Shown: in pieces, positions 36,880 to 61,255 of the stretch
Position numbering within the stretch: position 1 is the first letter of the stretch
Layout of the letters: each line of letters begins with the position of its first letter
From: Candidatus Hecatella orcuttiae
Lineage (GTDB): Archaea; Thermoproteota; Bathyarchaeia; Hecatellales; Hecatellaceae
DNA length: 64,000 nucleotides
Direction of reading: 5' to 3'
Assembly (NCBI GenBank): GCA_002011035.2
Contig: MTLY02000003.1
Location: 192,001 to 256,000, forward strand
Position numbers and translations under genes: made by a program
The notes under the pieces: generated by a model
What the model was told of the DNA's origin: nothing
Databases searched by the model: none
The model's input: the letters and a program-made list of their open reading frames with translations, nothing else

Positions 36880-37025
36880 GCCCTGGTAGTATAGGCAGCC
36901 GTGATGCGGCTAGGGATACGCCGTATCCGGCTGGTAGAGTCCGGTCTAGTATGTGCGGCTGTTCCGTGGCTTTCCGGAGCCGAATCGCCCGTACGACCCG
37001 GGTTCAAATCCCGGCCAGGGCGCCA
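36880..37025 (+). tRNA. tRNA-Asp(GTC) with two introns (15/16 and 34/35); probable integration site
   Basis: GCCCTGG/CCAGGGC acceptor stem; introns 36895-36939 and 36962-36984; TTCAAAT T-loop; encoded CCA. Confidence 0.85.
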
Positions 37026-37071
37026 AACATTTAGTTTAAATCCCAAACATGTCCGATCTTCTATTAGGGCC

Positions 37072-43067: not shown

Positions 43068-43103
43068 CTTAACATAGAGAATGGGGTGTGAGAAATTTCT
43101 GAG

Positions 43104-43631
43104 TTGAACATTTACCATGAAGCAAACAGGTTGGCTGAGGAAGCCGCGAAGTCTGATGTTAGGAAAGGGCAGCTGGAGCAGCTTGCACGTTATGCAGAGA
43201 CCCATGATAAGGAAGGCATTCTTTTCTGGATTAGGAAGCAGGTGACAAGGGAAAGTGGAGGGCGACCCTTACTCAGCTTGGACTTCGCTTCCAAGTTGGA
43301 AGACCTCTTAGGTAGGGCTGTCCCTCGTATTTTTTCTAAAATTGTCGGAGTAGCGGCGGATTATTTAGATTGGAAGCTTCGTGAGAAGGATATAGAAATT
43401 GTTGGGCGGCGTCGGGGAGAAATCGATAAAGTAGTGAGGGAGCAACTCAGCTTGAGGAGGCTTCGGTTTGGCGGGTCTAAGCTTTTCATGGACCGTGATG
43501 GGTTTAGGCTTAGTGTCAACGTTGAGGGTAGAGTTCCCGACAGGGGTAGGCTGGCTTCGGAAATAGTTGGCGAGGTAAAGCGGAGAGTTCCTGAATTGAG
43601 GTACGTAAACCTGAAAGTTTGGTTTGAATAA
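43104..43631 (+). CDS. Putative Cas11/Csm2-like small subunit with extra C-terminal region
   Basis: Position between cas10 and cas7; helical N-terminal half (GQLEQL...FWIRKQ). Confidence 0.6.
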   Translation: MNIYHEANRLAEEAAKSDVRKGQLEQLARYAETHDKEGILFWIRKQVTRESGGRPLLSLDFASKLEDLLGRAVPRIFSKIVGVAADYLDWKLREKDIEIVGRRRGEIDKVVREQLSLRRLRFGGSKLFMDRDGFRLSVNVEGRVPDRGRLASEIVGEVKRRVPELRYVNLKVWFE

Positions 43632-43656
43632 AAGAGAAAGGAGGTGAAAGGTTAGA

Positions 43657-44346
43657 TTGGTGTTTGAAAAACTGGATAAAAGACTGATCCTAGAGGGGGA
43701 AATCGAAGCCTTAACAGCGTTGCATGTAGGCTCGGGGAAGGCTGAGTTTGAGGAAACCGTGGACCTTCCGGTGTTGAAAGACCCTAAGGGAAACCCCTAC
43801 GTGCCGGGGTCTTCCTTGAAGGGTAGAGTTCGCTCTGAAGCTGAAAGGTTGGCTAGGTCTATGGGTTATGCAGTATGCGAAGCTCCAACTGTGGAGTCGA
43901 TGTGCGGGTCGAAAGCTAAGGGAGAGGAAAGTCTTTGTATAATTTGCAAAATCTTCGGTACGGCTGGTATGAAGGGTGGAGTTTCTAGGGCGAGTAAAGT
44001 GAAGTTTAGGGATGCCCATCTGGTTGGCGGCTTGGAGAATCTGCTTAGGAGGACAGGTATAGCCTTGGACAGAGAGACAGGCACCGTGAAGCCTGGGGCT
44101 CTGTATAGCTTGGAGGCTGTTCCGGCTGGTAGTCGTTTCAGCTTGGAAATTGTGGCTGAGAACTTGACCGATGAGGAGCTTGGGTTGTTGAAGGCTGCTT
44201 TGAGGTCGGTGGAGGATAGTGCTTTAGGCGGGCAGTCTTCTCGGGGGCTTGGTAAGGTTCGTATCCGGGTGGACAGGGCTAGGGTTAGGACTGCGGAGTT
44301 CTATGTAGGGAAGGCTTCGGAGGAAGTTGTTGAACCGTGGAAATAA
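43657..44346 (+). CDS. csm3: Cas7/Csm3 RAMP
   Basis: TALHVGSG, VDLPV, PYVPGSSLKGRVRS, Zn-binding Cys, LGGQSSRGLG. Confidence 0.93.
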   Translation: MVFEKLDKRLILEGEIEALTALHVGSGKAEFEETVDLPVLKDPKGNPYVPGSSLKGRVRSEAERLARSMGYAVCEAPTVESMCGSKAKGEESLCIICKIFGTAGMKGGVSRASKVKFRDAHLVGGLENLLRRTGIALDRETGTVKPGALYSLEAVPAGSRFSLEIVAENLTDEELGLLKAALRSVEDSALGGQSSRGLGKVRIRVDRARVRTAEFYVGKASEEVVEPWK

Positions 44347-45533
44347 GAGAACAGGCCTTGGGGTGCTTTGTGATTAGGGGTACGGTGAAAGCTCAGAGTC
44401 CTCTCCATTTGGGGGCTGAGCCGAGGCTTGGAGTGGTTAAGGGAACCAAGGTTTACATTCCGGGCTCAATGCTCAGGGGAGCAGTGGGTTTAGCTTTGGC
44501 TAGGGCTGTTTGCGTTAAACCTGAGTATGCTAAGAGGCATGAGGAATGTCCGAGTCGAGAGGATTGTGACTACTTCCAGCTTTTCCAGGATGAGGGGAAT
44601 AGGGCTTCAGAGGTTTTCTTCAGGAACGCCTATCCTAGGCATGAGGGTTGCGTTGGAGGTGGAATATACTACCCTACTCCGCGAACTTTCTTTGTCTGCG
44701 AGGATTGTGGGGAGACAAGGTTTAACGGCTTTAATCCTCCTAAAGAATGCCCAAAATGCAGGGGTGTCCTTAAGCCTTATGAGGGCTATATTTGCTCTGT
44801 TTGCGGACATATTGCAAGGGCTCCGGTAAACTTGGCACGGATCACGAGGACAGCTATAGACCGGCGTCGCTATGCCGCAGCTATGATTAGGTTGCCTGGT
44901 GAGGCTGAACCTTTTGGCACTCTTCACAGCCGAGATGTGGTTGCTCAAGGTACTTGTTTTGGTTTGGAGGTTGTGGTAGGCTCTAAGGCTGAACCCTGTT
45001 TAAAGGCTTTGACTTCAACTCTAGAGAAGGCTCTGCCCGACGAGGGTTTGGGGGGAGGTAGAAGCCGGGGGTTTGGCAGGGTTTCTGTTAAGATCAGCGA
45101 GGTTAGTCGTCTAGATGCGGGAAGGTTTGAGGATAGAGCTTCGAAGCTTAACTCAGCGGATTTCGCCATAAGGCTTGTTTCAGATGCTCTGCTGGAGGGG
45201 TTAGACTTGTCAGGTCAGACTTTGGTGGCTGCGGCTAGGAGGGCTTATACTTGGATTTTCAAGGAGGGCGCTCCTAGACTTCCCAGTGTTAAGCTGATAG
45301 ACCGAAGGGTAGGTGAAGGTAGATTTAGCGGTTGGAGGCTAAAGGAGGACAGGAGAAGAGAGGTTTTGCCCACTGTAGCGGCTGGAAGCGTCTTCAGGTA
45401 TAGATCTGATGGGGTTGAAGTGTTCAGTAAGGCTTTGGCGGCTTTAGAGGTCTTGGCTGTGGGAGGCTTTAAGCCCATGGGCCTAGGCCAGCTCAGGGTT
45501 AAAAATATGTCAGGAGACTCCTTAGAGGAGTAG
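44337..45533 (+). CDS. Csx10-like double-RAMP (Cas7/Cas5 fusion) with Zn-finger insert
   Basis: SPLHLG, YIPGSMLRGA, LGGGRSRGFG, AGSVF, GGFKPMGLGQ. Confidence 0.78.
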   Translation: MEIREQALGCFVIRGTVKAQSPLHLGAEPRLGVVKGTKVYIPGSMLRGAVGLALARAVCVKPEYAKRHEECPSREDCDYFQLFQDEGNRASEVFFRNAYPRHEGCVGGGIYYPTPRTFFVCEDCGETRFNGFNPPKECPKCRGVLKPYEGYICSVCGHIARAPVNLARITRTAIDRRRYAAAMIRLPGEAEPFGTLHSRDVVAQGTCFGLEVVVGSKAEPCLKALTSTLEKALPDEGLGGGRSRGFGRVSVKISEVSRLDAGRFEDRASKLNSADFAIRLVSDALLEGLDLSGQTLVAAARRAYTWIFKEGAPRLPSVKLIDRRVGEGRFSGWRLKEDRRREVLPTVAAGSVFRYRSDGVEVFSKALAALEVLAVGGFKPMGLGQLRVKNMSGDSLEE

Positions 45534-45599
45534 AGAGGAACTGAGTTCTAGGTGGAGGTGGTGAAGGGCGTAAAGGGCTGGGCTGCCAACCCGGCATCG

Positions 45600-45818
45600 C
45601 CATACTCAGTTAATAATTGGTGAAGATGCTTGGAAGGATGAAGGGTCAATATTTCTGAAGTCATGGAAAATGTAGGTCGATGATTCTTCTGTGGGAGAGG
45701 CGGGTGAAACTGTGAACAGCGTTAAATACCCTCTGCCGGTTTTCCGTCGTTCGCGAAGGCTTGATGTAAAGAGACTGTTCACCGAAGAGTAGAAAGAAAA
45801 CGCTGAAAAATACTCCCA
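45600..45818 (+). promoter_or_regulatory. Probable CRISPR leader
   Basis: Non-coding, TTAAATA box near 45722, adjoins first perfect repeat; degenerate repeat is at the far end. Confidence 0.55.
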
Positions 45819-47397
45819 GTTTCAATGACTCAAAAGAAGAGGAGACTACAGAAACTTGGAAGATTTTTTCGCCTTGCTGTCTTTGCTGGTAGTTTCAATG
45901 ACTCAAAAGAAGAGGAGACTACAGAAACTAGGAATGAAATTTTCCATTTTAAAATTTGTAAATGTTTCAATGACTCAAAAGAAGAGGAGACTACAGAAAC
46001 ATCGGCGACCTGATACAGGACAGCGAAGGAAACTTCTGTTTCAATGACTCAAAAGAAGAGGAGACTACAGAAACAAGCCAATACGTGAAGGTAGCAACGA
46101 TTAACGCTAAAGTTTCAATGACTCAAAAGAAGAGGAGACTACAGAAACCGTGGAAAAACGCTACGCCCTACCTGCGGGCAGAGGCAGTTTCAATGACTCA
46201 AAAGAAGAGGAGACTACAGAAACGCAAAAGCCAAAATAGTTCCATCTACTGGAAATTTAGTTTCAATGACTCAAAAGAAGAGGAGACTACAGAAACGAGC
46301 AGTCATAAGAATTTCCTCGACTGCATTATTAAGGGTTTCAATGACTCAAAAGAAGAGGAGACTACAGAAACTCAAGTTTTTTTAAGATTAAATGTTCTTT
46401 CAAATCCAGTTTCAATGACTCAAAAGAAGAGGAGACTACAGAAACAGTGAATCACAAGCGTGAACCCATACTTTACAAACATGTTTCAATGACTCAAAAG
46501 AAGAGGAGACTACAGAAACACCATAACCAAGAAGAATTAAAAAAATTATATGTGTGTTTCAATGACTCAAAAGAAGAGGAGACTACAGAAACCTATACCA
46601 TAATTAGCCGCTTCGAGCATAAAATCATGTTTCAATGACTCAAAAGAAGAGGAGACTACAGAAACATCACTTCCCCGAATTTTTCGGCCTGGCGGGTGGA
46701 AGGTTTCAATGACTCAAAAGAAGAGGAGACTACAGAAACTTTTGTCATCTTTCCTTCCCATTTTTATTTTATAGTTGTTTCAATGACTCAAAAGAAGAGG
46801 AGACTACAGAAACTAAAGGATACGGCTACAGAATTAACCAGTCTAGTCGTTTCAATGACTCAAAAGAAGAGGAGACTACAGAAACCATGGGAGAGAGGGG
46901 GGGAATTTCATTCTTTCCACCTGTTTCAATGACTCAAAAGAAGAGGAGACTACAGAAACCCGTGATCCTTACTCGGATGTCGAAGGGTTTGTTTGGTTTC
47001 AATGACTCAAAAGAAGAGGAGACTACAGAAACTTATCTCTCTTTGCTGAACCCGTTTATAGTAATCATGTTTCAATGACTCAAAAGAAGAGGAGACTACA
47101 GAAACCCCAAAAAGGCATCTTCCGTATCCCATTCGGCGCCACGTTTCAATGACTCAAAAGAAGAGGAGACTACAGAAACTTTTTTCGCTTCGGTTAAGTT
47201 TTCTGCCGAACCGAGTTTCAATGACTCAAAAGAAGAGGAGACTACAGAAACTTACAGTAGGGCGTTTGTATAACCCAGCATAGGCCGGTTTCAATGACTC
47301 AAAAGAAGAGGAGACTACAGAAACTCTTAGTGGGCTTTAAGAATGTCTTTTGTCTCAGCTAAGTTTCAATGGCTCAAGAAGGAAAAAAATGGAAAAC
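45819..47397 (+). CRISPR. CRISPR array: 21 perfect 37-bp repeats GTTTCAATGACTCAAAAGAAGAGGAGACTACAGAAAC plus one degenerate terminal repeat; 21 spacers of about 35-38 bp
   Basis: Repeats from 45819 to 47288-47324; degenerate copy 47363-47397. Orientation set from leader/trailer, but the minus strand ends in ATTGAAAC, so strand is not certain. Confidence 0.97.
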
Positions 47398-47529
47398 GTG
47401 CTGCTCGAAGAAAAAAGGACGATAGTATTCGCTGATAGGTCTCACCTGTCTTATTGTCAGTTTCGTTAATTCCAAGAAACTTTTTTAGCATATTATGAGG
47501 CGTTATCTTCACAAGAAGGTCGTAAACCT

Positions 47530-48720
47530 ATGAAAAAAGCACTTATAATTCCGATTGGCACCGGCGCCAAGCCAACCTCAGAAGCTGTGGAAAGTCTAGC
47601 TCACGGAATAACCTACAGCATCCAAGCAAGTCACCCAGATATGGTCTACTTCATAGTAACCCGGGAAAGCAAGAAGCTTACCCTACCCCATATCCTCCAG
47701 AAAATAGGCGCTCAAAATTATGAAACCATAGAAATCGAAGACCCGGATAACATTCAAAACATCTACGAAACCTTAAACCAAAAATTCAGAGAAATCAGAC
47801 AAACCTACCCAATCCTCTCCGTGGATTATACTTCAGGAACAAAGGCTATGACAGGGGCACTAATCATACTTGGAACCTTCCATGAGGCTGACAGCTTAAA
47901 CTACGTGACAGGCAAACGAGTAGGAGGAATAGTCCAAAAAGGAACCGAAAGAATAAACCACATCAGACCCTACTTTGCTATCTTAGAAAAGAAACTATCC
48001 ACAGCAAAAAAATTCTTCAACCAATGTCAATATGACGCCGTGCTAACCATAATCCAAGAAATAGAAAAGGCTACCGCGGACCCCCGAATCCACCAATCCA
48101 TAACCGACCTAAAAGCCCTAGCCAACTCCTACTCGGCATGGGATAAGTTCGACCACTCCACAGCCTTCAACCACCTAAAAACCGTGAAAGACCCCCTCTG
48201 CAACCAGAACAAAAGCTTCCTCGGAAGATTACTCCACACTCAAGAAAACGAACCCTACCTCATTGCAGATCTCATAAACAACGCAAGAAGGAGAGGGGAT
48301 ATAGAAAAGAAATACGACGACGCCGTCGCCAGACTATACCGAACCCTAGAATTTCTAACCCAATACGAACTAAAAAGAAGATACTCCCTCAACGCTGGTA
48401 ATCTACCCATAGAAGAGGTGCCTCAAGACCTGAGAAAGGAATGGGGGGTGCAAGGTCGGGAACAAAAAATCAAGATAGGACTCAACAAAACCTGCCAACT
48501 CCTAGCCGAGAAACGAAATCATTTTGGAAAACAACTCACCGAAGATAAGGAGCTACTTAACCTCCTTTCCAAGAGAAACAACTCCATCCTGGCCCATGGA
48601 ACTGAACCCGTTGACCAGAAAACCTACCTAAAACTTCTTCAAAAAACCATACACTATGCTTCTCAAGTCATACCAAACCTAGAAAACCTAATCCAAGACT
48701 CCACCTTCAACCGGCTTTAA
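47530..48720 (+). CDS. CARF-HEPN ancillary ribonuclease (TIGR02710/Csm6-like)
   Basis: VDYTSGTKAMT (CARF), YDDAVARLYRTLE, RNNSILAHG (HEPN). Confidence 0.9.
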   Translation: MKKALIIPIGTGAKPTSEAVESLAHGITYSIQASHPDMVYFIVTRESKKLTLPHILQKIGAQNYETIEIEDPDNIQNIYETLNQKFREIRQTYPILSVDYTSGTKAMTGALIILGTFHEADSLNYVTGKRVGGIVQKGTERINHIRPYFAILEKKLSTAKKFFNQCQYDAVLTIIQEIEKATADPRIHQSITDLKALANSYSAWDKFDHSTAFNHLKTVKDPLCNQNKSFLGRLLHTQENEPYLIADLINNARRRGDIEKKYDDAVARLYRTLEFLTQYELKRRYSLNAGNLPIEEVPQDLRKEWGVQGREQKIKIGLNKTCQLLAEKRNHFGKQLTEDKELLNLLSKRNNSILAHGTEPVDQKTYLKLLQKTIHYASQVIPNLENLIQDSTFNRL

Positions 48721-50865: not shown

Positions 50866-51184
50866 CCTGCAAGACGCCCTGCACGTAGCCTGCTCCATGC
50901 ACGTACTTGACCTTCCGACCCTCCCTTGCCCACGTCCGCCTGTCTATGCTGTCAATCTTCAGCCACCGCTCCGTGCACCGGCCGCACAGCCCCCGCTCCA
51001 GCAGCCCTCCGCACCGCCGGGCCAGCCTAGCCCACCAGTCGCCCCAGTGCCGCTCCTGCTTGTAGGCTACGCCGCAGACCTCGCAGACCAGCTGCACGAC
51101 GACCGCTCCTCCGAATCCTGCCGTTGCCATGCCTGCCATCTCCGAATAAGGCTTTGCTGAGAACATATTTAAACTTCCTACCAC
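50834..51184 (-). CDS. Hypothetical Zn-finger protein
   Basis: CEVC...GLCGRC; divergent from the array. Confidence 0.45.
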   Translation of the reverse strand: MVGSLNMFSAKPYSEMAGMATAGFGGAVVVQLVCEVCGVAYKQERHWGDWWARLARRCGGLLERGLCGRCTERWLKIDSIDRRTWAREGRKVKYVHGAGYVQGVLQVKRRRPRLKS

Positions 51185-51243
51185 CTTAAGCCTTCTTTTT
51201 CAAAAACAGGCCTTAATAAAGGCCCTAGAGCCAAAAGAAACGG

Positions 51244-51256
51244 TATATTTAAATAT
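51244..51256. promoter_or_regulatory. Palindromic TATA-like box upstream of the structured RNA and gene array
   Basis: TATATTTAAATAT, flanked by an imperfect IR (CCTTCTTTTTCAAAAA / TTTTTGAAGAAGG). Confidence 0.55.
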
Positions 51257-51304
51257 CTTCTCAGCAAAACCCTTTTTGAAGAAGGTCTCAAAGGGGGTGT
51301 TTTT

Positions 51305-51412
51305 GTGCGTTTCAAGGCGGCAGCGGAGCGGCTTTTCGAAGCCCTAGGCGGCGACGAGTGGGCCGCGGAGCAGGTGCGCATCTGGCTGGCCCTCAGGAAC
51401 GGGCGGAACTAG
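51305..51412 (+). CDS. 35-aa leader ORF
   Basis: GTG start after GGGGGTG; MRFKAAAERLFEALGGDEWAAEQVRIWLALRNGRN. Confidence 0.5.
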   Translation: MRFKAAAERLFEALGGDEWAAEQVRIWLALRNGRN

Positions 51413-51925
51413 GCCGGGCAGCCCCCGGCTTAGCCGCAGTCCGGCGTGAAGAGGCCGGAGAAGGAATGACCACCCGGAGAAGCCTGACCGGCAGGGGGGC
51501 TCAGGTTCCGGGTGCAACCGTGCCCTTGAGAGGCACAGGCCGGGTGGGGCGACCCCCGGGGCTGAGCTGAAAAGGCTGTGAACCCGGGGGCGGAAGTACA
51601 GGGAACCTTGAAGCCTCCCCGGAGGCCCGAGGCCGGCGGTAGAGCCGACGGCCTGTGAGCGGCTGAGGGGAGGCTGGGTTAGAACCCTAGAGCCGCAGGC
51701 GGTGAGGACCGCCAAGCTCCGAGCCTGCGGTCGCGGGGGCTGCCCCGAAGGGCCCCTGCGGGTAACTCGAGCATGTCAATCCCCAACATGCTTAGCCCCG
51801 CGTCTGAGGCGGTGTCTCGTAGGCCCCAAGGGGGGCTAGCGAGGTCTGTCCCCGGGCAGGCTTGGGCGACCAAGCCAATAGCCCAGCCTCCCAGGCGACT
51901 GGGAGGCGTGTCCACGGCGGGGCGA
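51413..51925 (+). ncRNA. Putative large structured non-coding RNA
   Basis: 12-bp closing stem 51416-51427/51734-51745, many hairpins, three GCGA tetraloops, K-turn-like motifs, no credible ORF. Confidence 0.7.
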
Positions 51926-51933
51926 GGGTTTGC

Positions 51934-52149
51934 ATGGCCAAACCCCAACGTCACCCTGACTACCCGGATGCACAGGCCCTTGTCGGGGTGAAGGCCTTGC
52001 AGGTTGTTCGAGTAGTGGAGGAGCTGCAGCCCGACAGCTTCACGCCAGACTTCACCTGGTGCCGGGTGGAGGTGCAGCTTCCAGACGGCTCCAGGGCGGT
52101 TTGGACGTTGCTGCTGTCGCCGGCCGAGCTCCGAAAATACGGACGTTAG
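51934..52149 (+). CDS. Hypothetical protein
   Basis: First ORF after the structured region. Confidence 0.6.
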   Translation: MAKPQRHPDYPDAQALVGVKALQVVRVVEELQPDSFTPDFTWCRVEVQLPDGSRAVWTLLLSPAELRKYGR

Positions 52150-52190
52150 TCCAAACCCCTCCTTTTTTGGCTCAATTCTCGGGGACAGCC

Positions 52191-52442
52191 ATGGAAGCCT
52201 TCACGGTGCCCAAATTCGACCTGCACATCCACGGAGGCCTGGTCCTCCGGCTCCGCGGCGGAGTGACCTTCCAGCGGCAGGGCGGCGGGTCGGCCGTCCT
52301 CATCCGCAACCACGCCTACACGGCCAGGCTCATCCGCCTGGGCGACTGCCCTTATCCGCTGCTGGTGGACGAAGACGGCGTGGTGGGCGTCGTCCCCAGG
52401 CTGCCGGCTAAGATAAGGCGGTGGCTGGGGGCGTTCCACTAG
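52191..52442 (+). CDS. Hypothetical protein
   Basis: ATG 10 nt after motif. Confidence 0.6.
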   Translation: MEAFTVPKFDLHIHGGLVLRLRGGVTFQRQGGGSAVLIRNHAYTARLIRLGDCPYPLLVDEDGVVGVVPRLPAKIRRWLGAFH

Positions 52443-52488
52443 GCCGACCCCGTGGGCCTCCCTTTTTCTGCCTCGGGGGGACCACCGC

Positions 52489-52623
52489 ATGGAGCGCTGT
52501 CCCAGGTGCGGCTACGCCTTCAACCCCAGGCCCAACTGGATGCTGACCGTCTGCCCGAAGTGCGGCGAAACCCTGGTGAGGGTTAAAGCCGGAGAAGACC
52601 GACTGGTGAAGGCTTTCGACTGA
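52489..52623 (+). CDS. 44-aa Zn-ribbon protein
   Basis: CPRCG...CPKCG; preceded by motif. Confidence 0.65.
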   Translation: MERCPRCGYAFNPRPNWMLTVCPKCGETLVRVKAGEDRLVKAFD

Positions 52624-52649
52624 GCCCTTTTTTCGGGGAAGGGGTTAGC

Positions 52650-52775
52650 GTGGTTTCATGGGTTGAGGTGGACGACCTAGCCCAGGATGTGGCTGAGAAG
52701 GCCGGGGACGACCTGGCTTCGAGGGTGAAGGAGCTGGCGGTGCGGCTGGCCGAAGAGGGCCTGACTGCCGAGTAG
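52650..52775 (+). CDS. 41-aa hypothetical protein
   Basis: Fills the gap between two motifs. Confidence 0.55.
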   Translation: MVSWVEVDDLAQDVAEKAGDDLASRVKELAVRLAEEGLTAE

Positions 52776-52796
52776 GCCCCTTTTCGGGGATTTTCG

Positions 52797-53525
52797 ATGG
52801 CTAAGGCTAAGGGTAAAGTCGTCGAGCAGGTGCTCGTTCAGGCCGCCAAGCCCGGTCAAAGACGGCAGGTGGCCGAGGAGCTGAAGAAGGCGGAGGCGGA
52901 GGGCCGGCGGTTCCACGGCTTCAAAGCCGACCTCAGGTACACCAGCCCCGAGTTCACCGTCACAACGCCCATCCGCTACGAGAAGCTCACCGCCAAGGAC
53001 GTGGAGGCCCGCATGAAGATCGTGCACCGCCACGTCAGCGGCGTCGAAGTCTCCCTCCGGCCGACACCCTACCACTGGGCGTACATGGACGCGGAGGGCC
53101 GGGAGTACCCGGAGGCCGAGGTCCGCCACTACCAGCTGCTCCCCGACGGCCGGGAGGTGGAGGTGCAACCGTTCCCCAGGACCAAGGTCTTGGAGGTCAA
53201 GAAGCTGCTGCCAGCCACCAGCCTCAGCGAGTTCCTCGTCGAAGGCCTCTACGAGGTCTGGTCCGACGCCCCAGGGCAGCTGCTGGAGTTCGCCGAATAC
53301 CTCCAACGCAAGGACGCCATGGCCGTGAGCAAGCTGAGCTTCGGCCGGGGCTTCAAGGAAAGCTACGCCCTCATCTACCCCATCTTCCAGGACGGCCGCT
53401 TCATCCTGGTGATGGCCCTGACCCAGAAGCGCGTCGAATACCGCCACTGGATGCCGGTGGAGGCTCAGGAGGCGAAGCCGAGGGAGGCTGTGCCCGTGGC
53501 CCAGTCGGTCTTGGAGGAAATCTAA
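52797..53525 (+). CDS. Ku-like DNA end-binding protein (putative)
   Basis: Pattern resembles the prokaryotic Ku core: HRH..G..V, GREY..AEVRHY, TKVLEV, YEV, AVSKLSF.RGFKESYALIYP. Confidence 0.55.
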   Translation: MAKAKGKVVEQVLVQAAKPGQRRQVAEELKKAEAEGRRFHGFKADLRYTSPEFTVTTPIRYEKLTAKDVEARMKIVHRHVSGVEVSLRPTPYHWAYMDAEGREYPEAEVRHYQLLPDGREVEVQPFPRTKVLEVKKLLPATSLSEFLVEGLYEVWSDAPGQLLEFAEYLQRKDAMAVSKLSFGRGFKESYALIYPIFQDGRFILVMALTQKRVEYRHWMPVEAQEAKPREAVPVAQSVLEEI

Positions 53526-53549
53526 GCCTCCAACCTTTCGGGGACAGGG

Positions 53550-53741
53550 TTGTCCTTATGTGTGGGCGTGAAGAGGAATCCGACGCTTGCAGTGGCCGGT
53601 GAGGGCGTGGAAAAGATGAGCAGAGACGAGCTGCTGGAGCTGGCGGGCGAATACCTGGAAACGGTCTGCTTTCTCCCGGCGAGGGTTATCAGGCGTGGGA
53701 AGCGGGCTGTCATCGTCTTGGAGCCTGAAAGCTACCCGTAG
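53550..53741 (+). CDS. Hypothetical protein, paralog of 54715-54906
   Basis: Shares VGVKR.PTL.VAGEGV.KM...EYLETV.F.PARVI.R...AVIVLEPESYP. Confidence 0.75.
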   Translation: MSLCVGVKRNPTLAVAGEGVEKMSRDELLELAGEYLETVCFLPARVIRRGKRAVIVLEPESYP

Positions 53742-53764
53742 CCGCCCTTTTTCGGGGGGGCCTC

Positions 53765-53900
53765 ATGGGATTCTGCTGTGAGCACCTCAAAGCCCAATCA
53801 GCCATGCTACCGGCTGATGTTCCTCTACTGGCTGTGCGAAGCCTGCTACAAGGCTCTCAAGGAAGGAAGCTTGGACGTGAAAATATACAGGCTGTCCTGA
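53765..53900 (+). pseudogene. Frameshifted small Zn-finger gene
   Basis: MGFCCEH... continues in another frame as CYRLMFLYWLCEACYKAL, ending just before the next motif. Confidence 0.45.
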
Positions 53901-53930
53901 GCTCCCAGGGGCTTTTCGGGGAGTCTGGAC

Positions 53931-54098
53931 GTGGCTGGGAAACGGAAGCTTAAGGAGTATGTAGTGGACCTCGAAAGCTTCACCGTGGAAGCCCGAGACC
54001 ACGATGAAGCCGTGGAGGCAACGCAGCGAAAACTCAAGCAGATGATGGCGGAGGGAAAGGTTGGCATCGACGCCGTGGTGGAGCTGAGCGACGGATGA
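53931..54098 (+). CDS. 55-aa hypothetical protein
   Basis: GTG 13 nt after motif. Confidence 0.6.
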   Translation: MAGKRKLKEYVVDLESFTVEARDHDEAVEATQRKLKQMMAEGKVGIDAVVELSDG

Positions 54099-54128
54099 GG
54101 CGGACACGCCTATTTTTCGGGGAACGAA

Positions 54129-54659
54129 TTGGAAAAGCTCTTCACCGACCTAGCCTTCGCGCTATCCCCCACCATCATCACCCACCAAGGCGGTTGGGGA
54201 GACACCGTTCCAGAGTGGCTGGTCGCAGAGATAAAGCTACAGAGGCTCGCCGAGAACCTGAGGAGGCTGAAGGGTGAAGCCGTCGAGGAGGCCGGCGACG
54301 CCGAGGCTCTGGCCTACCTGTACACGGCCTTCCTGAGCGTGCCGCCCTCCGAGAAGTGGACGAGAATCTACTCCTACCTCCTCGGTAAGGTTGCCCGCGG
54401 CAGGCTCCGGGTTCCCTCAGAAATCGAGGTCAAGGAGCTCTCAGATTACGAGCAGGAGAAGCTCCGGGAGCTGAAGCGGTGGATTTACAGGAAGCGGGCT
54501 GAAAGGGAAAGGCAGCGGCGCGGAGAGGAAGGCCTCGGAGTGCTTCAGCCCCCAAACCGGGCTTCAGCCAGCCTCAGAGCCCGCAGGGCGTGGGTTAAAA
54601 TCTACCGGAGGCGAGGCCAAGAGGATAAGGCCAAGGCTTTGGAGGAAGCCTTAGCCTAA
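54129..54659 (+). CDS. Hypothetical protein
   Basis: 176-aa ORF, TTG 10 nt after motif. Confidence 0.75.
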   Translation: MEKLFTDLAFALSPTIITHQGGWGDTVPEWLVAEIKLQRLAENLRRLKGEAVEEAGDAEALAYLYTAFLSVPPSEKWTRIYSYLLGKVARGRLRVPSEIEVKELSDYEQEKLRELKRWIYRKRAERERQRRGEEGLGVLQPPNRASASLRARRAWVKIYRRRGQEDKAKALEEALA

Positions 54660-54714
54660 ATTTCGGGCAGCGGGCGGAAACCCCGTTTATCCCCGTTCTC
54701 GGGGGCAGACCGAC

Positions 54715-54906
54715 ATGGTTTTCCGCGTCGGCGTCAAGAGGAAGCCTACGCTTCTGGTGGCAGGCGAAGGCGTCGACAAGATGGGCAGCGCCGCCCTCAT
54801 GGAGCTGGCCAGCGAGTACCTGGAAACAGTCCGCTTTGAGCCTGCCAGGGTCATAAAGCGCAGAGGCTGCGCCGTCATCGTCCTCGAGCCGGAAAGCTAC
54901 CCTTAA
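54715..54906 (+). CDS. Hypothetical protein, paralog of 53550-53741
   Basis: See paralog. Confidence 0.75.
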   Translation: MVFRVGVKRKPTLLVAGEGVDKMGSAALMELASEYLETVRFEPARVIKRRGCAVIVLEPESYP

Positions 54907-55059
54907 CCGAGGGGGTCTTTTTTCGGGGGAAGAGGGGGCCAGCCTTTGGGAAAATGCGTCGACTGCGGCAGAGAAACCGTGAGCCAGCCTGCCCGTCGTG
55001 CAGCACAACAGTCAACCTGGAAGAGGAGGAATAGTCGCCCTTATTTTCGGGGAGCAACC

Positions 55060-55374
55060 GTGGGCAGGAAGCGTTACGACTTTTTCAGGACGAGGTTCGT
55101 CGTCCAGCCCAAGAATTCGATTTTGTACGGGTCCGCCTCGAAGGTTAAAGCTCACCTCCTTGCACTCAACAGCATCTACGGTATCGGCGTCTCCGTCAAG
55201 GAGGTTCCAGGCGGAAACCTTGAAATCGTTACGAGGACTGGTCTGCCGGAGACGGCTAAAATGGACAGAAACTTCGTCCGCTACGTTCTGCAACACCATG
55301 CATATATTGTGGAGGAGGTCTTCGAAGGGCGGAGGTTTCGAGGCAGGAGGGAAATATGGGAGCCCGCGGAGTAG
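55060..55374 (+). CDS. Hypothetical protein
   Basis: GTG 11 nt after motif. Confidence 0.6.
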   Translation: MGRKRYDFFRTRFVVQPKNSILYGSASKVKAHLLALNSIYGIGVSVKEVPGGNLEIVTRTGLPETAKMDRNFVRYVLQHHAYIVEEVFEGRRFRGRREIWEPAE

Positions 55375-55403
55375 GCGAGAGCTCCCGTTTTTCGGGGAAG
55401 ACC

Positions 55404-55574
55404 ATGCCTCTGGTAGCCGTGTTTGTGAAGGAGAAGACGACGCCTGGAACTGTCCGCTACCGGGAGGAGGCCGGCGAAAACCCGACGACTCTGCGAACGG
55501 TGTACATCGAAAAATGGGCCGTGCAGAAATACGGCCTCGGAGACCGGATAAAGGTAACCGTGGAGCCGGCGTAG
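55404..55574 (+). CDS. 56-aa hypothetical protein
   Basis: ATG 10 nt after motif. Confidence 0.6.
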   Translation: MPLVAVFVKEKTTPGTVRYREEAGENPTTLRTVYIEKWAVQKYGLGDRIKVTVEPA

Positions 55575-55601
55575 CCCCCCGGTGCTCTTTCGGGGTTCGA
55601 C

Positions 55602-55838
55602 GTGAGGAGGGCTAGAACCGTCAGGGGGCTCCTCCGACAGCTGAGCCGCTGCCCGGAGTGCAGGGGAAGCCCTGCTGTGTTCTTCGGCAACGGCCTCTCC
55701 ATGTGCCAAGCCCACTGGGAAGCCTACGCGGAGGCCTTCGACTACGAGGACGGAAAATTCAAGCCCAGCGTTTTCGGGGGCGAGGATGGCGGAAAAGCGG
55801 CTGCTCAGGTCCTTCATAGCCGACCTCGAGCGGGTTAA
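55602..55838 (+). CDS. Small Zn-finger protein
   Basis: CPEC...CQAHW; GTG 10 nt after motif. Confidence 0.55.
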   Translation: MRRARTVRGLLRQLSRCPECRGSPAVFFGNGLSMCQAHWEAYAEAFDYEDGKFKPSVFGGEDGGKAAAQVLHSRPRAG

Positions 55839-56040
55839 AGACCTGCTCGAAGCCTACAACCTGGGCGAAGCCCGGCTGGCGGACGCCTGGGACTTCATCA
55901 GCCTCAGGCTTGACCAGTACAGGCTCCTGCTCAACCCACCCAAGAAACACACCGCATACCGCCGCAAAATCTGCGGCGGAACCTTCACCACGGCGGACGG
56001 AAGGGAAGGATGCACATGGCCACGCACGGCTACTCCTTGA
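55786..56040 (+). CDS. Hypothetical protein
   Basis: ATG 10 nt after motif. Confidence 0.5.
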   Translation: MAEKRLLRSFIADLERVKDLLEAYNLGEARLADAWDFISLRLDQYRLLLNPPKKHTAYRRKICGGTFTTADGREGCTWPRTATP

Positions 56041-56151
56041 AGGGGGCTGTGAAAAAGGGATACGCGGAGAAACTGAAGGAGCAAGTTTCCGCCCGGCCTT
56101 TCGGGGTTGATTGGCCGTACCCTAGTGCCCCGGACTACCGAGGTGGTTTAG

Positions 56152-56385
56152 ATGTCTATGGGACCTCCTAAATGTCCTGAATGCGGTGAACCCCTTAACG
56201 GAGTCTACTTTGATACCAGCGAATACTACGTCTTCGACCCGTCTGCCGGAACCTACCTTTCAGACGAAAAATCTGGCGAAGGCTACACAAAATGTCCCAA
56301 ATGCGACGCAGACCTTTTCGACCTATTCCCCAACGGCCCCATAAACTTCAAACCCAAACCCAGCACAAAGGGAGCGACCCGATGA
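56152..56385 (+). CDS. Zn-ribbon protein (lower GC, canonical GAGGTG SD)
   Basis: CPECG...CPKC. Confidence 0.65.
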   Translation: MSMGPPKCPECGEPLNGVYFDTSEYYVFDPSAGTYLSDEKSGEGYTKCPKCDADLFDLFPNGPINFKPKPSTKGATR

Positions 56386-56450
56386 TAACTCTAGGCTGTG
56401 CGACACTCTGGTGCACCATTCCTCTGGAGGTCATCCTTTCGGGGACAGCC

Positions 56451-57453
56451 GTGAGCATGGAAGTGGCTGAGCTTAAACCCAAACTGAAGGCTCTGCGAAG
56501 TCTCAGGGAAGTCCCGTTTACAGGCGACACGTGGCTTCAGGTGAAAGCCGACGGAGAGCTGGCCTTGGTGAAGTTTGAGGGCGGAGAGGCCGAGGCGGTG
56601 AACCGCTGGGGCACCGTCCACAGGGGGCTGCCCTGCCTCCGAGAGTTCGCCGAGGCCCTCAAGGCCAAGAGGCTTCGAAGCTTGGAGGCCTTGGCCGAGC
56701 TGTACGCGGAGGGCCTCCGCCTGCCGGAGTTCAGAAAGACCCTGACCCGGAAGCCCGAGGCGGTGAAGCTAGGCTTCTTCACCCTCCTGGCGGTCAACGG
56801 CGCCGGGGTCAAGAACGACTGGCCCTGGCAGATGGGGGAGGCTGGAGTCTTGGCTTGCAGCCAGCCGCCTGGCGGGGCCTCTGCCCTACCGGCGGGTGGT
56901 CGGCCTGCAGGAGGCGGAAGCCTTCTGGAAGGAGTGGGTGGAGGGCCGCGGCTACGAGGGCGTCGTAGCCCGGACGCCCCGGGGAGGCTTCAAAGTCAAG
57001 CCGGAGCTCACCGTGGACGCCGCGGTGGTGGGCGTCAAAAAGACCGAGCGGCTGAGGGTGGGAAGCGTGGTGACAAGCCTCCGCCTGGCCTTGATGAGCC
57101 CGGAGGGCGACCTGGTCCATGTGGGCGATGTCTCCAGCGGCATCGACCCGGAGACCGGGCGGAGGCTCCACGCCTTGGTCAAGCACTTCGCGGTGGGCGA
57201 AGACCGGGAAGCCTACCACGTCAGGCCGGTGCTCGTAGCCGAGGTGAGGTGCTTCGACGTATACCCCGGCCTGCGGCAGGTCTGGCGCTGGGACGGCCGC
57301 CGGTACGCAGCCCGGCAGCCCAGAAGCTTCTTCAGCCTCAAGTCTCCGGTGTTGGTCAGGTTCAGGGAGGACAAGCAGCTGAGGCCTGAAGACCTAGCCT
57401 TGGAGCAGATTCCCGAAGCAGGCCCTTTCTCTTTCGGGGAGGGGGAACCGTGA
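56451..57453 (+). pseudogene. ATP-dependent DNA ligase, frameshifted near the G5 run at 56834-56838
   Basis: QVKADG (motif I), AELY, GYEGVV, FKVKP, GDVSSG, VRFREDK split across two frames. Confidence 0.78.
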
Positions 57454-57572
57454 AGCTCTGCCCTCGCTGCTCCAACGCCATCCTGGACATGCGGCAGGAG
57501 CTAGACCCCATGGGGCGGCCTGTCCAGTTTTGGCACTGCTCCCGCTGCAACCACCGGTGGACGGAGACGTAA
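57450..57572 (+). CDS. 40-aa Zn ribbon, TFS/TFIIS C-ribbon-like
   Basis: CPRC...FWHCSRCNHRW. Confidence 0.55.
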   Translation: MKLCPRCSNAILDMRQELDPMGRPVQFWHCSRCNHRWTET

Positions 57573-57722
57573 GCTTCCAGTTTCGGGGAAACCGGGTCCC
57601 CTGTAAGTCCACGCCTACCCCGCTTCAACCAGCGACTAAGGTAGGCTGAAAAGTGGCGTGGGGTTTAGGGCGGTTTCAGCCCACCGGCCCCAAAGGCTGG
57701 CTCCATTTTTTTCGGGGATTTT

Positions 57723-57941
57723 ATGCCCATCTTAGGCTCGGCTGACTGCTACGAGTGCGAGGGGGAGAAAACCGTCCGGCTGGTCGTCGACGGCCGAGGA
57801 GTCTGGAGCCGGTGCTTCCGGTGCGGCTTCACCGAGTGGGAGTGGGCCCTGGGCGACAACCCCGCCTACCTGGACTGCCTGGCGGAAAAATACCGCGTCG
57901 ACAAAGAAGCCATCGTAGACGCCCTCGAAGAGGCGGGGTGA
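57723..57941 (+). CDS. Small Zn-finger protein
   Basis: CYEC...CFRCG; ATG 9 nt after motif. Confidence 0.65.
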   Translation: MPILGSADCYECEGEKTVRLVVDGRGVWSRCFRCGFTEWEWALGDNPAYLDCLAEKYRVDKEAIVDALEEAG

Positions 57942-58236
57942 CCCTGAAACAGTCAGCTATTTTGAGGTCGTCAACCCTAAGCTGGCGTCCTATAAAATCT
58001 TCTTCCCCGCGGACATATCCTGCTGGACTTGGAGAGGCGGCGAGCCCTTCCCCGACTTCATCCACCGGGTTGTCGTCGTCGCCTCCAGAGGCTGCCATCA
58101 GTGGACTTTGGATGAACTGGAAAAGCTCAGCATGGAAGCTCCTGAAAGGGAGCGGCGACGGCGGGCTGCCAGACGGGCGGCCTTGAGGCGAAGGCTGAGG
58201 CCGACCTGACCCCGGTTTTTCCTTTCGGGGACCACC

Positions 58237-59360
58237 ATGGAAGGCCGAAGTTTAACCCCAAGCCAGCAAGCCTACCTGAAGAAGCTGGGTGTCTCCGACC
58301 CCGGCCGGTTGACCGCCGGGCAGAAGGCCTACCTCACCATCCTGGGCCGTAGGGAAGGCGTCGAGCCTCCCAAGCCCGTCAAAGCCTCAGCGTACCAGCC
58401 TCTGGGCCCCGAGGAGCTGGCGGCCAGGGGTGTGGGAAGCCTCAGGTTCGACCGGGCCGCCGACCTGACCTGGGAGCGCTACGGCATCGTGGAGGTGCCC
58501 ATAGCCTACGGAGGCCAGCCCTCCGGCTACAAGGCCGTCATCCGCAAAGGCCAGCTGGTTCAGATAGCCGGCCGGGGCTACCGCCTCCTGCCCAACGAGG
58601 AGGTTGTCCAGCTGGCGGACGAGACCGCTGAAGCCCTGGGGGCCAAGCCCTTCACCGAGTTCCGAGGCCGCTGGTTCGCCCCCATGGGCAACCACGTCAT
58701 CTACAACCGGGCTGAGACGCAGGTTCACGCCCTCTACGCCTTCGACGAGCCGGTGAAGGTGGAGGGCGTCGACACGGTGCACCTGGGCTTCGCCGTGCAC
58801 AACAGCATAGACGGCAGCTGCGGCTTCGGTGTTGGCGCCTTCACGTTCCGACAGTCTTAACAGTCGCCCGGAAGTGGGTGGAAGTCTTAAAAAGGGCGGC
58901 TGTAAGACCGGAAAACGCCTGCGCCAACATGGTGCTGATGGGCCTCCGCGGCTACTCCATGCCCTTCGACGAGCGGCGGGTGCTGGCCTGGGTCTACCAG
59001 CGCCACACCTCCAGGCTCAGGGTGGACAGGCCCAGCCTCCAGGACACCATCCTCAGGGTGGTGGACCGGGGGCGGGAGGTCCTGGAAGCCTACCGGCGGA
59101 TGGCCCTCGAACGGCTCAGCGAACCCGTAGCCCGCCGGATAGCCGAGTCGGAGCTGCCCCTCCGGGTGCTGCCCGACTTCATCGAAGTCGAAACCCTCGA
59201 AGACGGCCGCAGGGCGCTGAAGGGGTTCAGCCCCCAGGCAACCCTCTGGGACGCCTACAATTCCGTCAGCGCCGCCATCTGGCACAACGCCAAGTCGGAC
59301 ATCTCCACCAAGCTCGACCAGTTCAACGTCCTCCACGCAGCCCTGCCCCTGGCACGGTGA
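58237..59360 (+). CDS. DUF932-like protein interrupted by a 62-nt BHB-type intron (353 aa spliced)
   Basis: YRLLPNEEV, NSIDGS, FR-HA-CANM after splicing, H(T)S, TLWDAYN. Confidence 0.8.
58853..58914 (+). other. Putative bulge-helix-bulge mRNA intron
   Basis: TCCG/CGGA central helix, ACA and AAA bulges, long inner stem GTCTTA-A-CAGTCGCCC / GGGCGGCTG-TAAGAC. Confidence 0.78.
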
Positions 59361-59389
59361 ACCGTGCCGCCTGTTTCGGGGGAACCTGC

Positions 59390-59617
59390 GTGAGAAACCC
59401 GGCCTCGGTTGAGCCTACGCTTGACCACGTGCCCAATCCCTTCCAAATCCTCAACGCCTGGACCTATCTGCGAGCCGTGCAAAACGCCCATCGACGCTTC
59501 CTCCTACGCCTCCTCAGCAGCCGGAGGCTCAGAAGCAGGGAGCTGGAGAGAGCGGTTCTGTGGGACGTCTACGAAGCCCTTAAAACCGAAATCGTGTTCG
59601 CCCTCCCTAAGCCTTAG
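59390..59617 (+). CDS. Hypothetical protein
   Basis: GTG 12 nt after motif. Confidence 0.55.
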   Translation: MRNPASVEPTLDHVPNPFQILNAWTYLRAVQNAHRRFLLRLLSSRRLRSRELERAVLWDVYEALKTEIVFALPKP

Positions 59618-59640
59618 CCTCGCCGTTTCGGGGAGCGCCC

Positions 59641-59757
59641 ATGGTCACAGCCCGAACGGAGCTCTGCGACCTTCAAAAAATCTTCTGGGACATCTACAAC
59701 GTAACCAGGAAAGGAAGAGGACTGAAACCTCTGCCTTACCCCAAAAAGAGGACCTGA
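59641..59757 (+). CDS. 38-aa hypothetical protein
   Basis: ATG 11 nt after motif. Confidence 0.45.
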   Translation: MVTARTELCDLQKIFWDIYNVTRKGRGLKPLPYPKKRT

Positions 59758-60061
59758 CCTGCCCTGTGCGCTGAACCCTTTTTTTCGGGGGGACGGATGC
59801 GTCCCCAGGAGGCTCGGTGATGGCTCAGACGGATTTTCCCCAGGAACTCATCGAACCCATCAAGGCTTTAGCCAACCGAACACGCCGGAAGCCCGTAACT
59901 TCGGTATCGACGCCCCTGGAACGCCCCACGACTCTCATTATGCGCTGTCAAACTTTGGGCGCAGATTACTGAAAAGCCTCATCCAGATGCTGGAGCCTGA
60001 AACGGCGTCCGCGACGAGCTGAAGCTCCTTTAGCCCTCGGCGTTTTTCGGGGAGAATCAAA

Positions 60062-60298
60062 ATGCAGGTTCAGGTTAAGACGCCTCCCGGCGTCGAGCTG
60101 AAAGACCGTCGGTCTTGCACCCGCTGCGCCCACCTCAACATCTGCGCCGTCTTCAGGGCCGTCGCCCCGCTGCTGGAAAGCTTCAAGGGCAAGGACGGAC
60201 AGGGCAAGCCGCCCTTCGACGCCAGGAGGCTGGCGGAGGTCTGCGATGAGTATCTCCCCGGCTACCGGGTGATGGAGGAGCCGAAGATCGAGCCGTGA
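60062..60298 (+). CDS. Small Cys-rich protein
   Basis: CTRCAHLNIC...C. Confidence 0.65.
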   Translation: MQVQVKTPPGVELKDRRSCTRCAHLNICAVFRAVAPLLESFKGKDGQGKPPFDARRLAEVCDEYLPGYRVMEEPKIEP

Positions 60299-60321
60299 AG
60301 GCGGCCCTTTCGGGGATGACC

Positions 60322-60498
60322 GTGGCCGACACCATCACCGTCTACCATCCGAAGACAGGGAGGAGGCTGAGGCTGGAAAGAACGGGCTCAGACCGGAAGC
60401 TGGGCATCTGCTACTACGCTGACAGGAAGCAGGGCGTCTACGTCGAAGACCGGTCTTCCTTTGACCAGGAAAACGAAATCGAAATCATCTTTCACTAG
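60322..60498 (+). CDS. Hypothetical protein
   Basis: GTG 10 nt after motif. Confidence 0.55.
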   Translation: MADTITVYHPKTGRRLRLERTGSDRKLGICYYADRKQGVYVEDRSSFDQENEIEIIFH

Positions 60499-60522
60499 CC
60501 CCGCAATTTCCGGGGAACCGTC

Positions 60523-60804
60523 TTGAAATGTGCGGCTAAAAGCCTCGTCGAAGACAGGGGTCTGAGGCTGTGCCCGCACGGGCACTCCCTCGAAACCGTG
60601 GACAGGCCCTCCCGGCGGCTGTGCGGAGGCTGCGAGTTTCTGAAGCCCTCCAGGTTCGCCGTGGTCACCGAGGTTGGAGGGCGGAGGCTGACGGCGGCCT
60701 ACTACGACAGCTTGGAGGAAGCGGAGAGGGCGGCTGCGGCCCTGACCGAGGGCAGCATGAGCAACCCTCGGGCTGGATGCGTCTACAGAGTGGAGGAAGC
60801 TTAG
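60523..60804 (+). CDS. Hypothetical protein
   Basis: TTG 11 nt after motif. Confidence 0.6.
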   Translation: MKCAAKSLVEDRGLRLCPHGHSLETVDRPSRRLCGGCEFLKPSRFAVVTEVGGRRLTAAYYDSLEEAERAAAALTEGSMSNPRAGCVYRVEEA

Positions 60805-61072
60805 GGAAGGCGGCCGCCTGACCTTTCGGGGTTAGGAAAGTTCCACACCGTCGGGGGTAGTCTTGAGCTTCAAAAAATATGAAGCCCAGTTCACCGCTTT
60901 AGCTAAACTCTTCAGGTCCTACGCCGACAGAAGGCACGTCGAGAGGCTGAAAACTTCCATTCGGAAGAAAATAGCGTGTTCTCCGAAAGAGTACGAACAG
61001 TTTGTGAGGAAAGCGAGTGAAAGTATCACAGAAACATCATAAACTATATATCTAAGGATATTATATTATACT

Positions 61073-61255
61073 TTGAGAGGCTCAAGGGTATTGAAAAGAG
61101 TCTTAGTCTGCTTACCTGAGGGTGTTTGGGAAGTCATAGAAAAGGAGTTTAAAGGTAAGCTTGGAGGAAAAAGTTCTGAAATTTTAAGAAACATAATAAT
61201 GGCTTACCTTTCAGAAAAAGGTATTCTCGAGAAGGTTAGGGAGGTCAAAGCTTGA
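61073..61255 (+). CDS. Ribbon-helix-helix regulator (possible R-M controller)
   Basis: KRVLVCLPE...SEILRNIIMAYL. Confidence 0.7.
   Translation: MRGSRVLKRVLVCLPEGVWEVIEKEFKGKLGGKSSEILRNIIMAYLSEKGILEKVREVKA

Follow-up and report, generated by a model that had tools for sequence, protein, structure and literature searches.

Structured RNAs of large size and unknown function are rare; most of those described are bacterial, several of them on prophages. Here we analyse a region of 521 nucleotides (nt) at positions 51413–51933 of a 64,000-nt stretch of the archaeon Candidatus Hecatella orcuttiae (contig MTLY02000003.1, positions 192,001–256,000; the whole stretch is called the window hereafter). 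In kind, the region comes closest to GOLLD, ROOL and OLE, large ornate RNAs found in bacteria and their prophages. The region opens a block of 9.6 kb (~51300–60900, hereafter the island), which is probably an integrated archaeal mobile element. We tentatively read it, with a confidence slightly short of an even chance, as a previously undescribed, element-encoded structured RNA of the + strand that would assemble with the protein L7Ae on two kink-turns (k-turns).

Like our region, GOLLD and ROOL span several hundred nt, contain many helices and are carried by mobile elements, often bacterial prophages, and their function is not settled. Both have been reported to form RNA-only assemblies (10.1101/2024.12.08.627333). 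In contrast to them, the region has no match in Rfam, lies in an archaeal host, contains 70% GC, bears k-turns that point to a protein partner, and is known in a single copy. The OLE RNA of extremophilic bacteria (~600 nt) is likewise a large, k-turn-bearing RNA in an extremophile. It is chromosomal, is widespread in Firmicutes and shows strong covariation. Our region differs from OLE in having no Rfam match, and no OLE partner proteins appeared in the scans of the window. The k-turn of OLE is needed for a protein partner (PMC9723947). Overall, no such large RNA tied to an archaeal virus or plasmid was found in Rfam or in the literature searched.

A reading made from the letters and open reading frames (ORFs) of the window alone (hereafter the sequence-only reading) had proposed here a structured non-coding RNA of roughly 510 nt. 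Our results support this in part: the gap between a 35-codon ORF and a 71-codon ORF is 521 nt long, carries no coding signal and is unusually structured. Between 51400 and 51850, GC by codon position is flat (0.66–0.73 in all three phases), while the downstream genes reach 0.95 at the third codon position (GC3). With a codon table trained on the clear genes of the island, all six frames of 51413–51933 are negative (−0.32 to −0.46 bit per codon), and so is every ORF inside the region (−0.20 to −0.35), whereas all 13 other ORFs tested are positive (+0.07 to +0.58). The longest internal ORF (123 amino acids (aa), − strand) has two matches among 1.84 billion representative proteins, both of low-complexity, repeat type and in long proteins, and none of the seven internal ORFs tested has a Pfam match at E ≤ 1. 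A conserved protein-coding frame, which the sequence-only reading had named as evidence against an RNA, was thus not found by codon periodicity, codon usage, Pfam or protein search. The region is non-coding.

Folded as RNA, the + strand of 51405–51935 reaches −298.2 kcal/mol (z = −4.76), an energy not attained by any of 100 dinucleotide shuffles. We have also tiled the island and its margins (50870–61129) with 57 tiles of 180 nt, each compared with 20 shuffles. Four adjacent tiles across 51410–52129 show + strand z-scores of −4.4, −2.9, −3.4 and −5.5, while one alone of the remaining 53 falls below −2.1 (58070–58249, −3.2). Since single tiles outside the region are rarely structured, the excess structure is local and is not a property of GC content. 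In addition, the region holds seven Watson-Crick stems of at least 8 pairs with a span of at most 130 nt, against 2.08 ± 1.6 expected (2 of 200 shuffles reach seven; island tiles hold 0–4 stems of at least 8 pairs), and one stem of 12 base pairs (bp), against 0.04 expected (7 of 200 shuffles). Short-loop hairpins of at least 6 pairs with G-U allowed are not significant in number (14 vs. 12.45, a count that 37% of 300 shuffles reach).

The helices named by the sequence-only reading could all be located in the sequence, and they are arranged in two domains as follows.

51416–51745, + strand: 5′ domain, with hairpins at 51440–59, 51471–514, 51520–36, 51546–55, 51553–90, 51612–75, 51676–87 and 51692–731
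51416–51427 with 51734–51745, + strand: closing helix of the 5′ domain, GGGCAGCCCCCG/CGGGGGCTGCCC, perfect with 12 Watson-Crick pairs
51440–45 with 51454–59, + strand: inner stem TCCGGC/GCCGGA, read from the sequence
51471–78 with 51507–14, + strand: inner stem CACCCGGA/TCCGGGTG, read from the sequence
51549–52, 51866–69 and 51895–98, + strand: GCGA loops closed by 3, 7 and 9 pairs, respectively
51553–51590, + strand: k-turn-like hairpin 1, with an 8-bp stem, a 3-bp C-stem, loop GAAAA and bulge UGU
51612–51675, + strand: k-turn-like hairpin 2, found by pattern scan, with a 9-bp lower stem, a 5-bp C-stem GGCCG/CGGCC, and stems stable at 85 °C
51612–20 with 51667–75, + strand: inner stem AGCCTCCCC/GGGGAGGCT, the lower stem of hairpin 2
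51693–700 with 51723–30, + strand: inner stem CCGCAGGC/GCCTGCGG, read from the sequence
51743–51749, + strand: CCCCGAA at the domain junction, the exact complement of TTCGGGG and the island's single − strand match to that motif
51769–93, + strand: hairpin preceding the 3′ domain, from the fold model
51795–51923, + strand: 3′ domain, with a hairpin at 51815–44 and GCGA-capped hairpins at 51859–76 and 51886–907
51795–801 with 51917–23, + strand: closing helix of the 3′ domain, GCCCCGC/GCGGGGC, one base to the left of its strict position in the sequence-only reading

Modelled at 85 °C, pairs in the closing helix, in the two k-turn hairpins and in the GCGA hairpins still have a probability of 0.7 or more. 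The 3′ domain at 37 °C has z = −3.7 on the + strand and −2.6 on the − strand.

Three GCGA-capped stems lie on the + strand against 0.07 expected, a number that 0 of 1000 shuffles reach; for GNRA-capped stems as a whole it is three against 0.49 (9 of 1000 shuffles), and the − strand of the region has none. Both k-turn-like elements proposed earlier are also present, and at the level of sequence they fit the k-turn consensus, i.e., a C-stem, a 3-nt bulge UGU and tandem GA/GA, with −1b:−1n being C:G in both. Hairpin 1 has GA 51564–65 and GCU 51566–68 facing GGC 51574–76, UGU and GA 51580–81. Its stem is stable at 85 °C in the fold model, and it was missed by the strict pattern because its C-stem consists of two Watson-Crick pairs and one G-U. 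Hairpin 2 has GA 51629–30 and GGCCG 51631–35 facing CGGCC 51649–53, UGU 51654–56 and GA 51657–58. The host shows archaeal marks, including intron-bearing tRNAs and an archaeal XerA-type integrase, and since it is archaeal, L7Ae, which is called universal in archaea (PMC5539422), should be present. L7Ae would be a candidate ligand of both k-turns.

We favour an RNA of the + strand because the GNRA caps and the k-turn patterns occur on that strand only, because the signal of the 5′ domain at 75 °C is stronger there (z = −6.2 vs. −3.2 on the − strand), and because the region is co-oriented with all island genes with no intervening T-run.

The proposed RNA matches no known family. With gathering scores, Rfam 15 finds one tRNA (19918–20029) in the whole window and no family for the region, so the scan that the sequence-only reading had proposed as a check has given no known class. 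A permissive scan of 51150–52200 (1051 nt, E ≤ 10) returns 15 weak matches, none of them near its cut-off, and the best one overlapping the region reaches 23 bits where 93 are required. RNase P, signal recognition particle (SRP) RNA, group I and II introns, GOLLD, ROOL, OLE, HEARO, and C/D and H/ACA small RNAs are all absent from the permissive scan at E ≤ 10, in line with the earlier remark that the region was not recognised as RNase P, SRP, or a group I or II intron. It is therefore highly improbable that the models have overlooked a divergent representative of a known class, whether RNase P RNA, SRP RNA, a group I/II intron, a bulge-helix-bulge intron, or an H/ACA or C/D guide. The resemblances are loose ones (closing helix, k-turns and GNRA loops), together with a string CCCGGCTTA near the 5′ end that presumably recalls RNase P. 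The sequence contains neither C or D boxes nor an ACA box downstream of the k-turn hairpins. Split exons are not suggested either, as the 71-aa ORF lacks any longer homologue in the range of 39–125 aa.

Two of these classes were also tried as specific candidates and rejected. For an archaeal bulge-helix-bulge intron, there are eight relaxed matches among ~57,600 position pairs and none at 51413 or 51933; in the best pair (51341–42 / 51988–89), checked by hand, the flanking ORFs are out of frame. In the hairpin of an H/ACA guide, an internal pocket lies 5–6 bp below a k-turn and is followed ~14 nt later by an ACA box. The hairpin at 51612–75 does have a k-turn, but its loop and k-turn are just 1–3 pairs apart, and the stem is not followed by ACA.

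The extent of the proposed RNA depends on its flanks, which contain the following features.

51153–51270, no strand assigned: putative AT-rich divergent promoter region, with near-identical inverted arms at 51153–76 and 51245–70
51305–51412, + strand: putative 35-codon ORF with a GTG start and GGGGGTG 5 bases upstream; its stop lies 1 nt before the structured region
51934–52149, + strand: 71-codon ORF that overlaps a long hairpin; coding status uncertain
52163–52168, + strand: T6 run, the first run of at least 5 T after 51304; candidate transcript end or partial termination site

The inverted arms, found by self-blast, each hold a TATA-like box plus TTCTCAGCAAA and are separated by an AT-rich spacer of 68 nt. 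Their TATA-like runs are the strongest in the island according to a list of A/T runs; the right-hand box (51244–56) faces the region, and the leftward one faces a 116-aa zinc-finger ORF. This arrangement suggests a symmetric divergent promoter or operator. No run of at least 5 T occurs between 51305 and 52162. Oligo-T acts as a terminator in archaea.

The 35-codon ORF has a codon-usage score of +0.40 bit per codon, and no family match was found for it in the protein-family scans. On the other side, the low-z folding stretch extends past the gap to ~52130, into the 71-codon ORF, and the hairpin through this ORF has z = −5.5 in the tile 51950–52129 and z = −3.4 in a separate fold. That is, the structured and possibly non-coding stretch may reach the T6 run, which would make it up to 750 nt long. 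The 71-codon ORF is doubtful as a gene and may belong to the RNA, because its codon score is low (just +0.11 with the island codon table), it has no diverged relatives (the search returned itself plus identical or 98% identical copies), it contains the hairpin, and the TTCGGGG motif, present ahead of 15 other ORFs, is missing. On the other hand, its GC by position (0.71/0.51/0.74) leans towards coding, and its amino-acid make-up is protein-like. By self-blast, there is no second copy of the region in the window.

Our reading starts from what has been observed, namely a non-coding region with excess structure, strand-specific motifs, no known family and a defined place in the element, and from this we infer transcription, processing, L7Ae binding, tertiary contacts and a function. 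Transcription would run rightwards from the TATA-like box at 51244–56 within the first transcript of the element, passing the short ORF, the RNA of ~520 nt, and then the 71-codon ORF (or an RNA tail) as far as the T6 run at 52163. The + strand RNA would then fold into two helix-closed domains, whose core stems would survive 85 °C; host L7Ae would bind both k-turns, and the three identical GCGA loops would make tertiary contacts. The outcome would be a compact, heat-stable ribonucleoprotein serving the element itself, beyond a single neighbouring gene. Its task could be that of a scaffold or co-factor in the DNA handling of the element, as a Ku-like protein and a ligase are encoded downstream, or alternatively it could control the rightward operon.

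The packaging RNA of phi29 offers a partial parallel. It lies near one end of a mobile genome, is made from an early promoter and is part of the element's machinery, and by our proposal the region shares all three properties. Unlike that RNA, the region has no Rfam match, is about three times larger, and lies in an island with no recognisable packaging genes.

A bolder version can be formulated, though we hold it to be unlikely: here, for the first time, a large ornate RNA would be encoded by a mobile element of archaea. Transcribed from the first promoter of the element and ~520 nt (up to 750) in length, it would form a heat-stable ribonucleoprotein with L7Ae, which works with the Ku-like protein and the ligase on the element's DNA ends, or acts on the island's gene-start motif TTTCGGGG(A) through CCCCGAA. 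The latter site (51743–49) is a single 7-mer and may be due to chance, with ~0.08 expected by a rough estimate.

As for the gene-start motif itself, it has 26 matches on the + strand and one on the − strand within 51251–60950, and 15 of the 26 sit 6–18 nt before the start of a listed ORF. All 23 exact copies of TTCGGGG are directly preceded by T. The other 54 kb of the window contain 13 matches on the + strand and 10 on the − strand, and the + strand between 51251 and 52175 has no copy. In 59361–60061 (701 nt), where no convincing ORF is listed, there are three TTCGGGG motifs and the folding z-scores are ordinary; this stretch probably holds unlisted small genes.

Several points weigh against the proposed RNA, and some of them bear on alternatives at the same time. 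The first of them is the folding energy. For the 5′ domain at 37 °C, the two strands are equal in folding (z = −5.2 on the − strand, −5.1 on the + strand), the tile 51770–51949 favours the − strand, and the reverse strand of the whole region has z = −3.84. DNA energy parameters give an equal signal, with z = −5.01 on the + strand and −4.24 on the − strand. As this signal is the same, folding energy can not separate RNA from single-stranded DNA. The sequence-only reading had preferred RNA over a single-stranded DNA hairpin on the basis of its GNRA loops and k-turns.

The equally exceptional folding with DNA parameters would fit an action at the DNA level, in which no RNA is made and the hairpins are a replication or single-strand origin, or protein-binding inverted repeats of the element. 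An AT-rich stretch with inverted repeats adjoins the region, the island genes are all on one strand, and the repeated GCCTCCC/GGGAGGC blocks could be protein-binding sites. The hairpin origins of rolling-circle archaeal viruses and plasmids are comparable in being non-coding and hairpin-rich, and the integrase of our locus (see below) is nearest to pleolipovirus integrases: in the phage collection, its closest relatives come from Archaeoglobi pleolipoviruses (33% identity) that encode rolling-circle Rep proteins. A hairpin-forming DNA element has been proposed as the origin of such an archaeal virus (PMC13107129). However, no Rep or initiator is recognisable among the island ORFs in Pfam, PHROGs, NCBIfam or PADLOC, though most of these ORFs are without assignment and a novel Rep may be among them. 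The region is much longer and more GC-rich than hairpin origins, its RNA-type loops and k-turn signatures are on one strand only, as is typical of RNA, and 70% GC over 520 nt is unlike the known, AT-rich archaeal origins. In addition, the two pleolipovirus genomes with the nearest integrases show no similarity to the region or to the tested island proteins; one of them has a gap of 499 nt, which lacks the high GC content of our region and looks like small zinc-finger ORFs. Overall, a role at the DNA level is decidedly unlikely.

The fold and the k-turns give the next points. The global two-domain fold of minimum energy shifts when the ends are moved by 5 nt, and the repeat blocks GCCTCCC/GGGAGGC and C5GG/CCG5 permit alternative pairings, for example 11 bp between 51668–78 and 51882–92. 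The number of k-turn patterns alone is not significant: the scan gives four matches on the + strand and none on the − strand, 1.68 are expected, and 31 of 300 shuffles reach four. Furthermore, neither k-turn has C at 3b or G at 3n, which have been linked to k-turn folding without protein (PMC6298567). From the same source, both k-turns are predicted to fold only with protein, as is expected for the L7Ae-bound k-turns of mRNA leaders.

The RNA is also without a separate promoter or terminator of its own. This would fit a purely cis-acting role, that is, a leader or intercistronic structure that sets the translation of the next ORF or the read-through of the operon, with or without L7Ae, and has no function as a free RNA; its read-through variant can be likened to the nut/put sites just after early phage promoters. 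The structure fills the gap between the two ORFs exactly, as the first helix begins 4 nt after the stop and the last one ends 1 nt before GAGGG-N5-ATG. In the hairpin GGGTTTG/CAAACCC (51926–45), the stem takes up part of the ribosome site and the loop contains the ATG, and the operon crosses many T5–T7 runs and has few internal TATA-like boxes. L7Ae is reported to control translation through a k-turn in the 5′ leader, and the L7Ae-bound k-turns of archaeal mRNA leaders share the k-turn consensus upstream of a start codon (PMC5539422 and PMC6298567). On the other hand, these leader operators are single short stem-loops, whereas here two k-turns are embedded in a multi-domain fold of 520 nt and the nearest one is ~275 nt from the next start codon. 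The hairpin over the Shine-Dalgarno site melts at 70–85 °C in the model, and the 71-codon ORF that should be controlled is itself doubtful. The structure, which comprises ~16 helices and two closed domains besides its three identical GNRA loops, goes far beyond what translational operators or put-type elements are known to require. We consider a purely cis-acting role possible, though unlikely. The ribosome site of the 71-aa ORF can also pair with the 5′ strand, but this was seen for one choice of ends only and is not relied on.

The last points concern relatives and the state of the element. The RNA reading rests on a single sequence, for which no homologue was retrieved. A blastn search of the region against 50,697 phage and 72,556 plasmid records was empty, and in protein-anchored scans of 185,579 species genomes, none of the 159 Ku-like and none of the 77 ligase pattern stretches was confirmed. 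The relatives of the neighbouring genes are metagenomic only, amounting to five Ku-like and two ligase proteins. At least one gene of the element is frameshifted, and the element may be decaying.

With a frameshifted ligase in the element, decay is plausible, and the region could be the remnant of a decayed gene, or else a non-functional GC-rich spacer, in which base composition and short repeats give rise to the stems. The lack of a known homologue, the ambiguous global fold and the simple hairpin counts, which match those of shuffles, would agree with this. Yet with z-scores of −4 to −6 against dinucleotide shuffles, the region stands apart from the remaining island, whose GC content is equally high, the three identical GCGA caps and the perfect 12-bp closing helix are rare among shuffles, and neither residual codon periodicity nor protein similarity is left in the region, which makes a remnant or spacer quite improbable.

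If the preferred reading of an element-encoded + strand RNA is true, a k-turn RNA particle in an element of hyperthermophile type would extend the class of large RNAs to archaea, and would offer a compact, naturally heat-stable RNA fold for structural work. It would also suggest that a little-known family of elements, which carry a Ku and ligase pair, employs an RNA co-factor. Even as a DNA origin or a leader, the region would mark where an undescribed element is controlled.

The island has ~62% GC, against ~52% in the rest of the window and 35–40% in the immediate flanks, and all its genes are on the + strand, the same as the RNA. Nearly all of them are ORFans in Pfam, PHROGs, NCBIfam and PADLOC, with two exceptions.

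52797–53525, + strand: divergent Ku homologue of 242 aa, 870 nt downstream of the region
56400–57453, + strand: ATP-dependent DNA ligase of the non-homologous end joining type, split over two reading frames

Of the five known members of the Ku-like family, four have a Pfam Ku hit, at best with E 3.8e-4, and a PDB search with the family profile gives bacterial Ku at E 0.21. The AlphaFold model of the 242-aa protein has a predicted local distance difference test score (pLDDT) of 43.6 and was not used for fold search. When the ligase is aligned with two metagenomic relatives (331–337 aa), ~25 of their residues are unmatched; the split could be a frameshift, a sequencing error or recoding. Together, Ku and ligase are a putative end-joining pair of the element. 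In tblastn searches of phages and plasmids, the 242-aa and 207-aa proteins and the ligase relative P0010 had no match, and the 207-, 176- and 83-aa proteins found nothing below E 0.19 among PDB sequences. The island also contains paralogous 63-aa ORFs at 53550–53741 and 54715–54906 without family assignment, with no match for the 63-aa paralogue in the ESM Atlas.

Further to the left, at 36880–38304, a tRNA gene with an intron is immediately followed by a 467-aa tyrosine integrase, which has a C-terminal zinc ribbon and a GC3 of ~0.9, like the island 13 kb away. The tRNA has a 3′ half with GGGTTCAAATCCC and CCA, and ARAGORN calls just 36939–37025; an Rfam scan of the tRNA-like site (36700–37200) gave nothing, and a direct repeat of the tRNA end was not found further right. 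Between this locus and the island, a type III CRISPR-Cas locus (41124–48720) encodes Cas10, RAMP proteins, and Csm6 with CARF and HEPN domains. Its array (45819–47324) has 21 repeats of 37 nt, and none of the 20 spacers matches the window, the island included. Just right of the island, an AT-rich stretch encodes a type II N4/N6 DNA methyltransferase (61297–62253). Finally, the 112-nt tRNA at 19918–20029, missed by ARAGORN, carries two insertions of 22 and ~24 nt relative to the model, which suggests that it has two introns.

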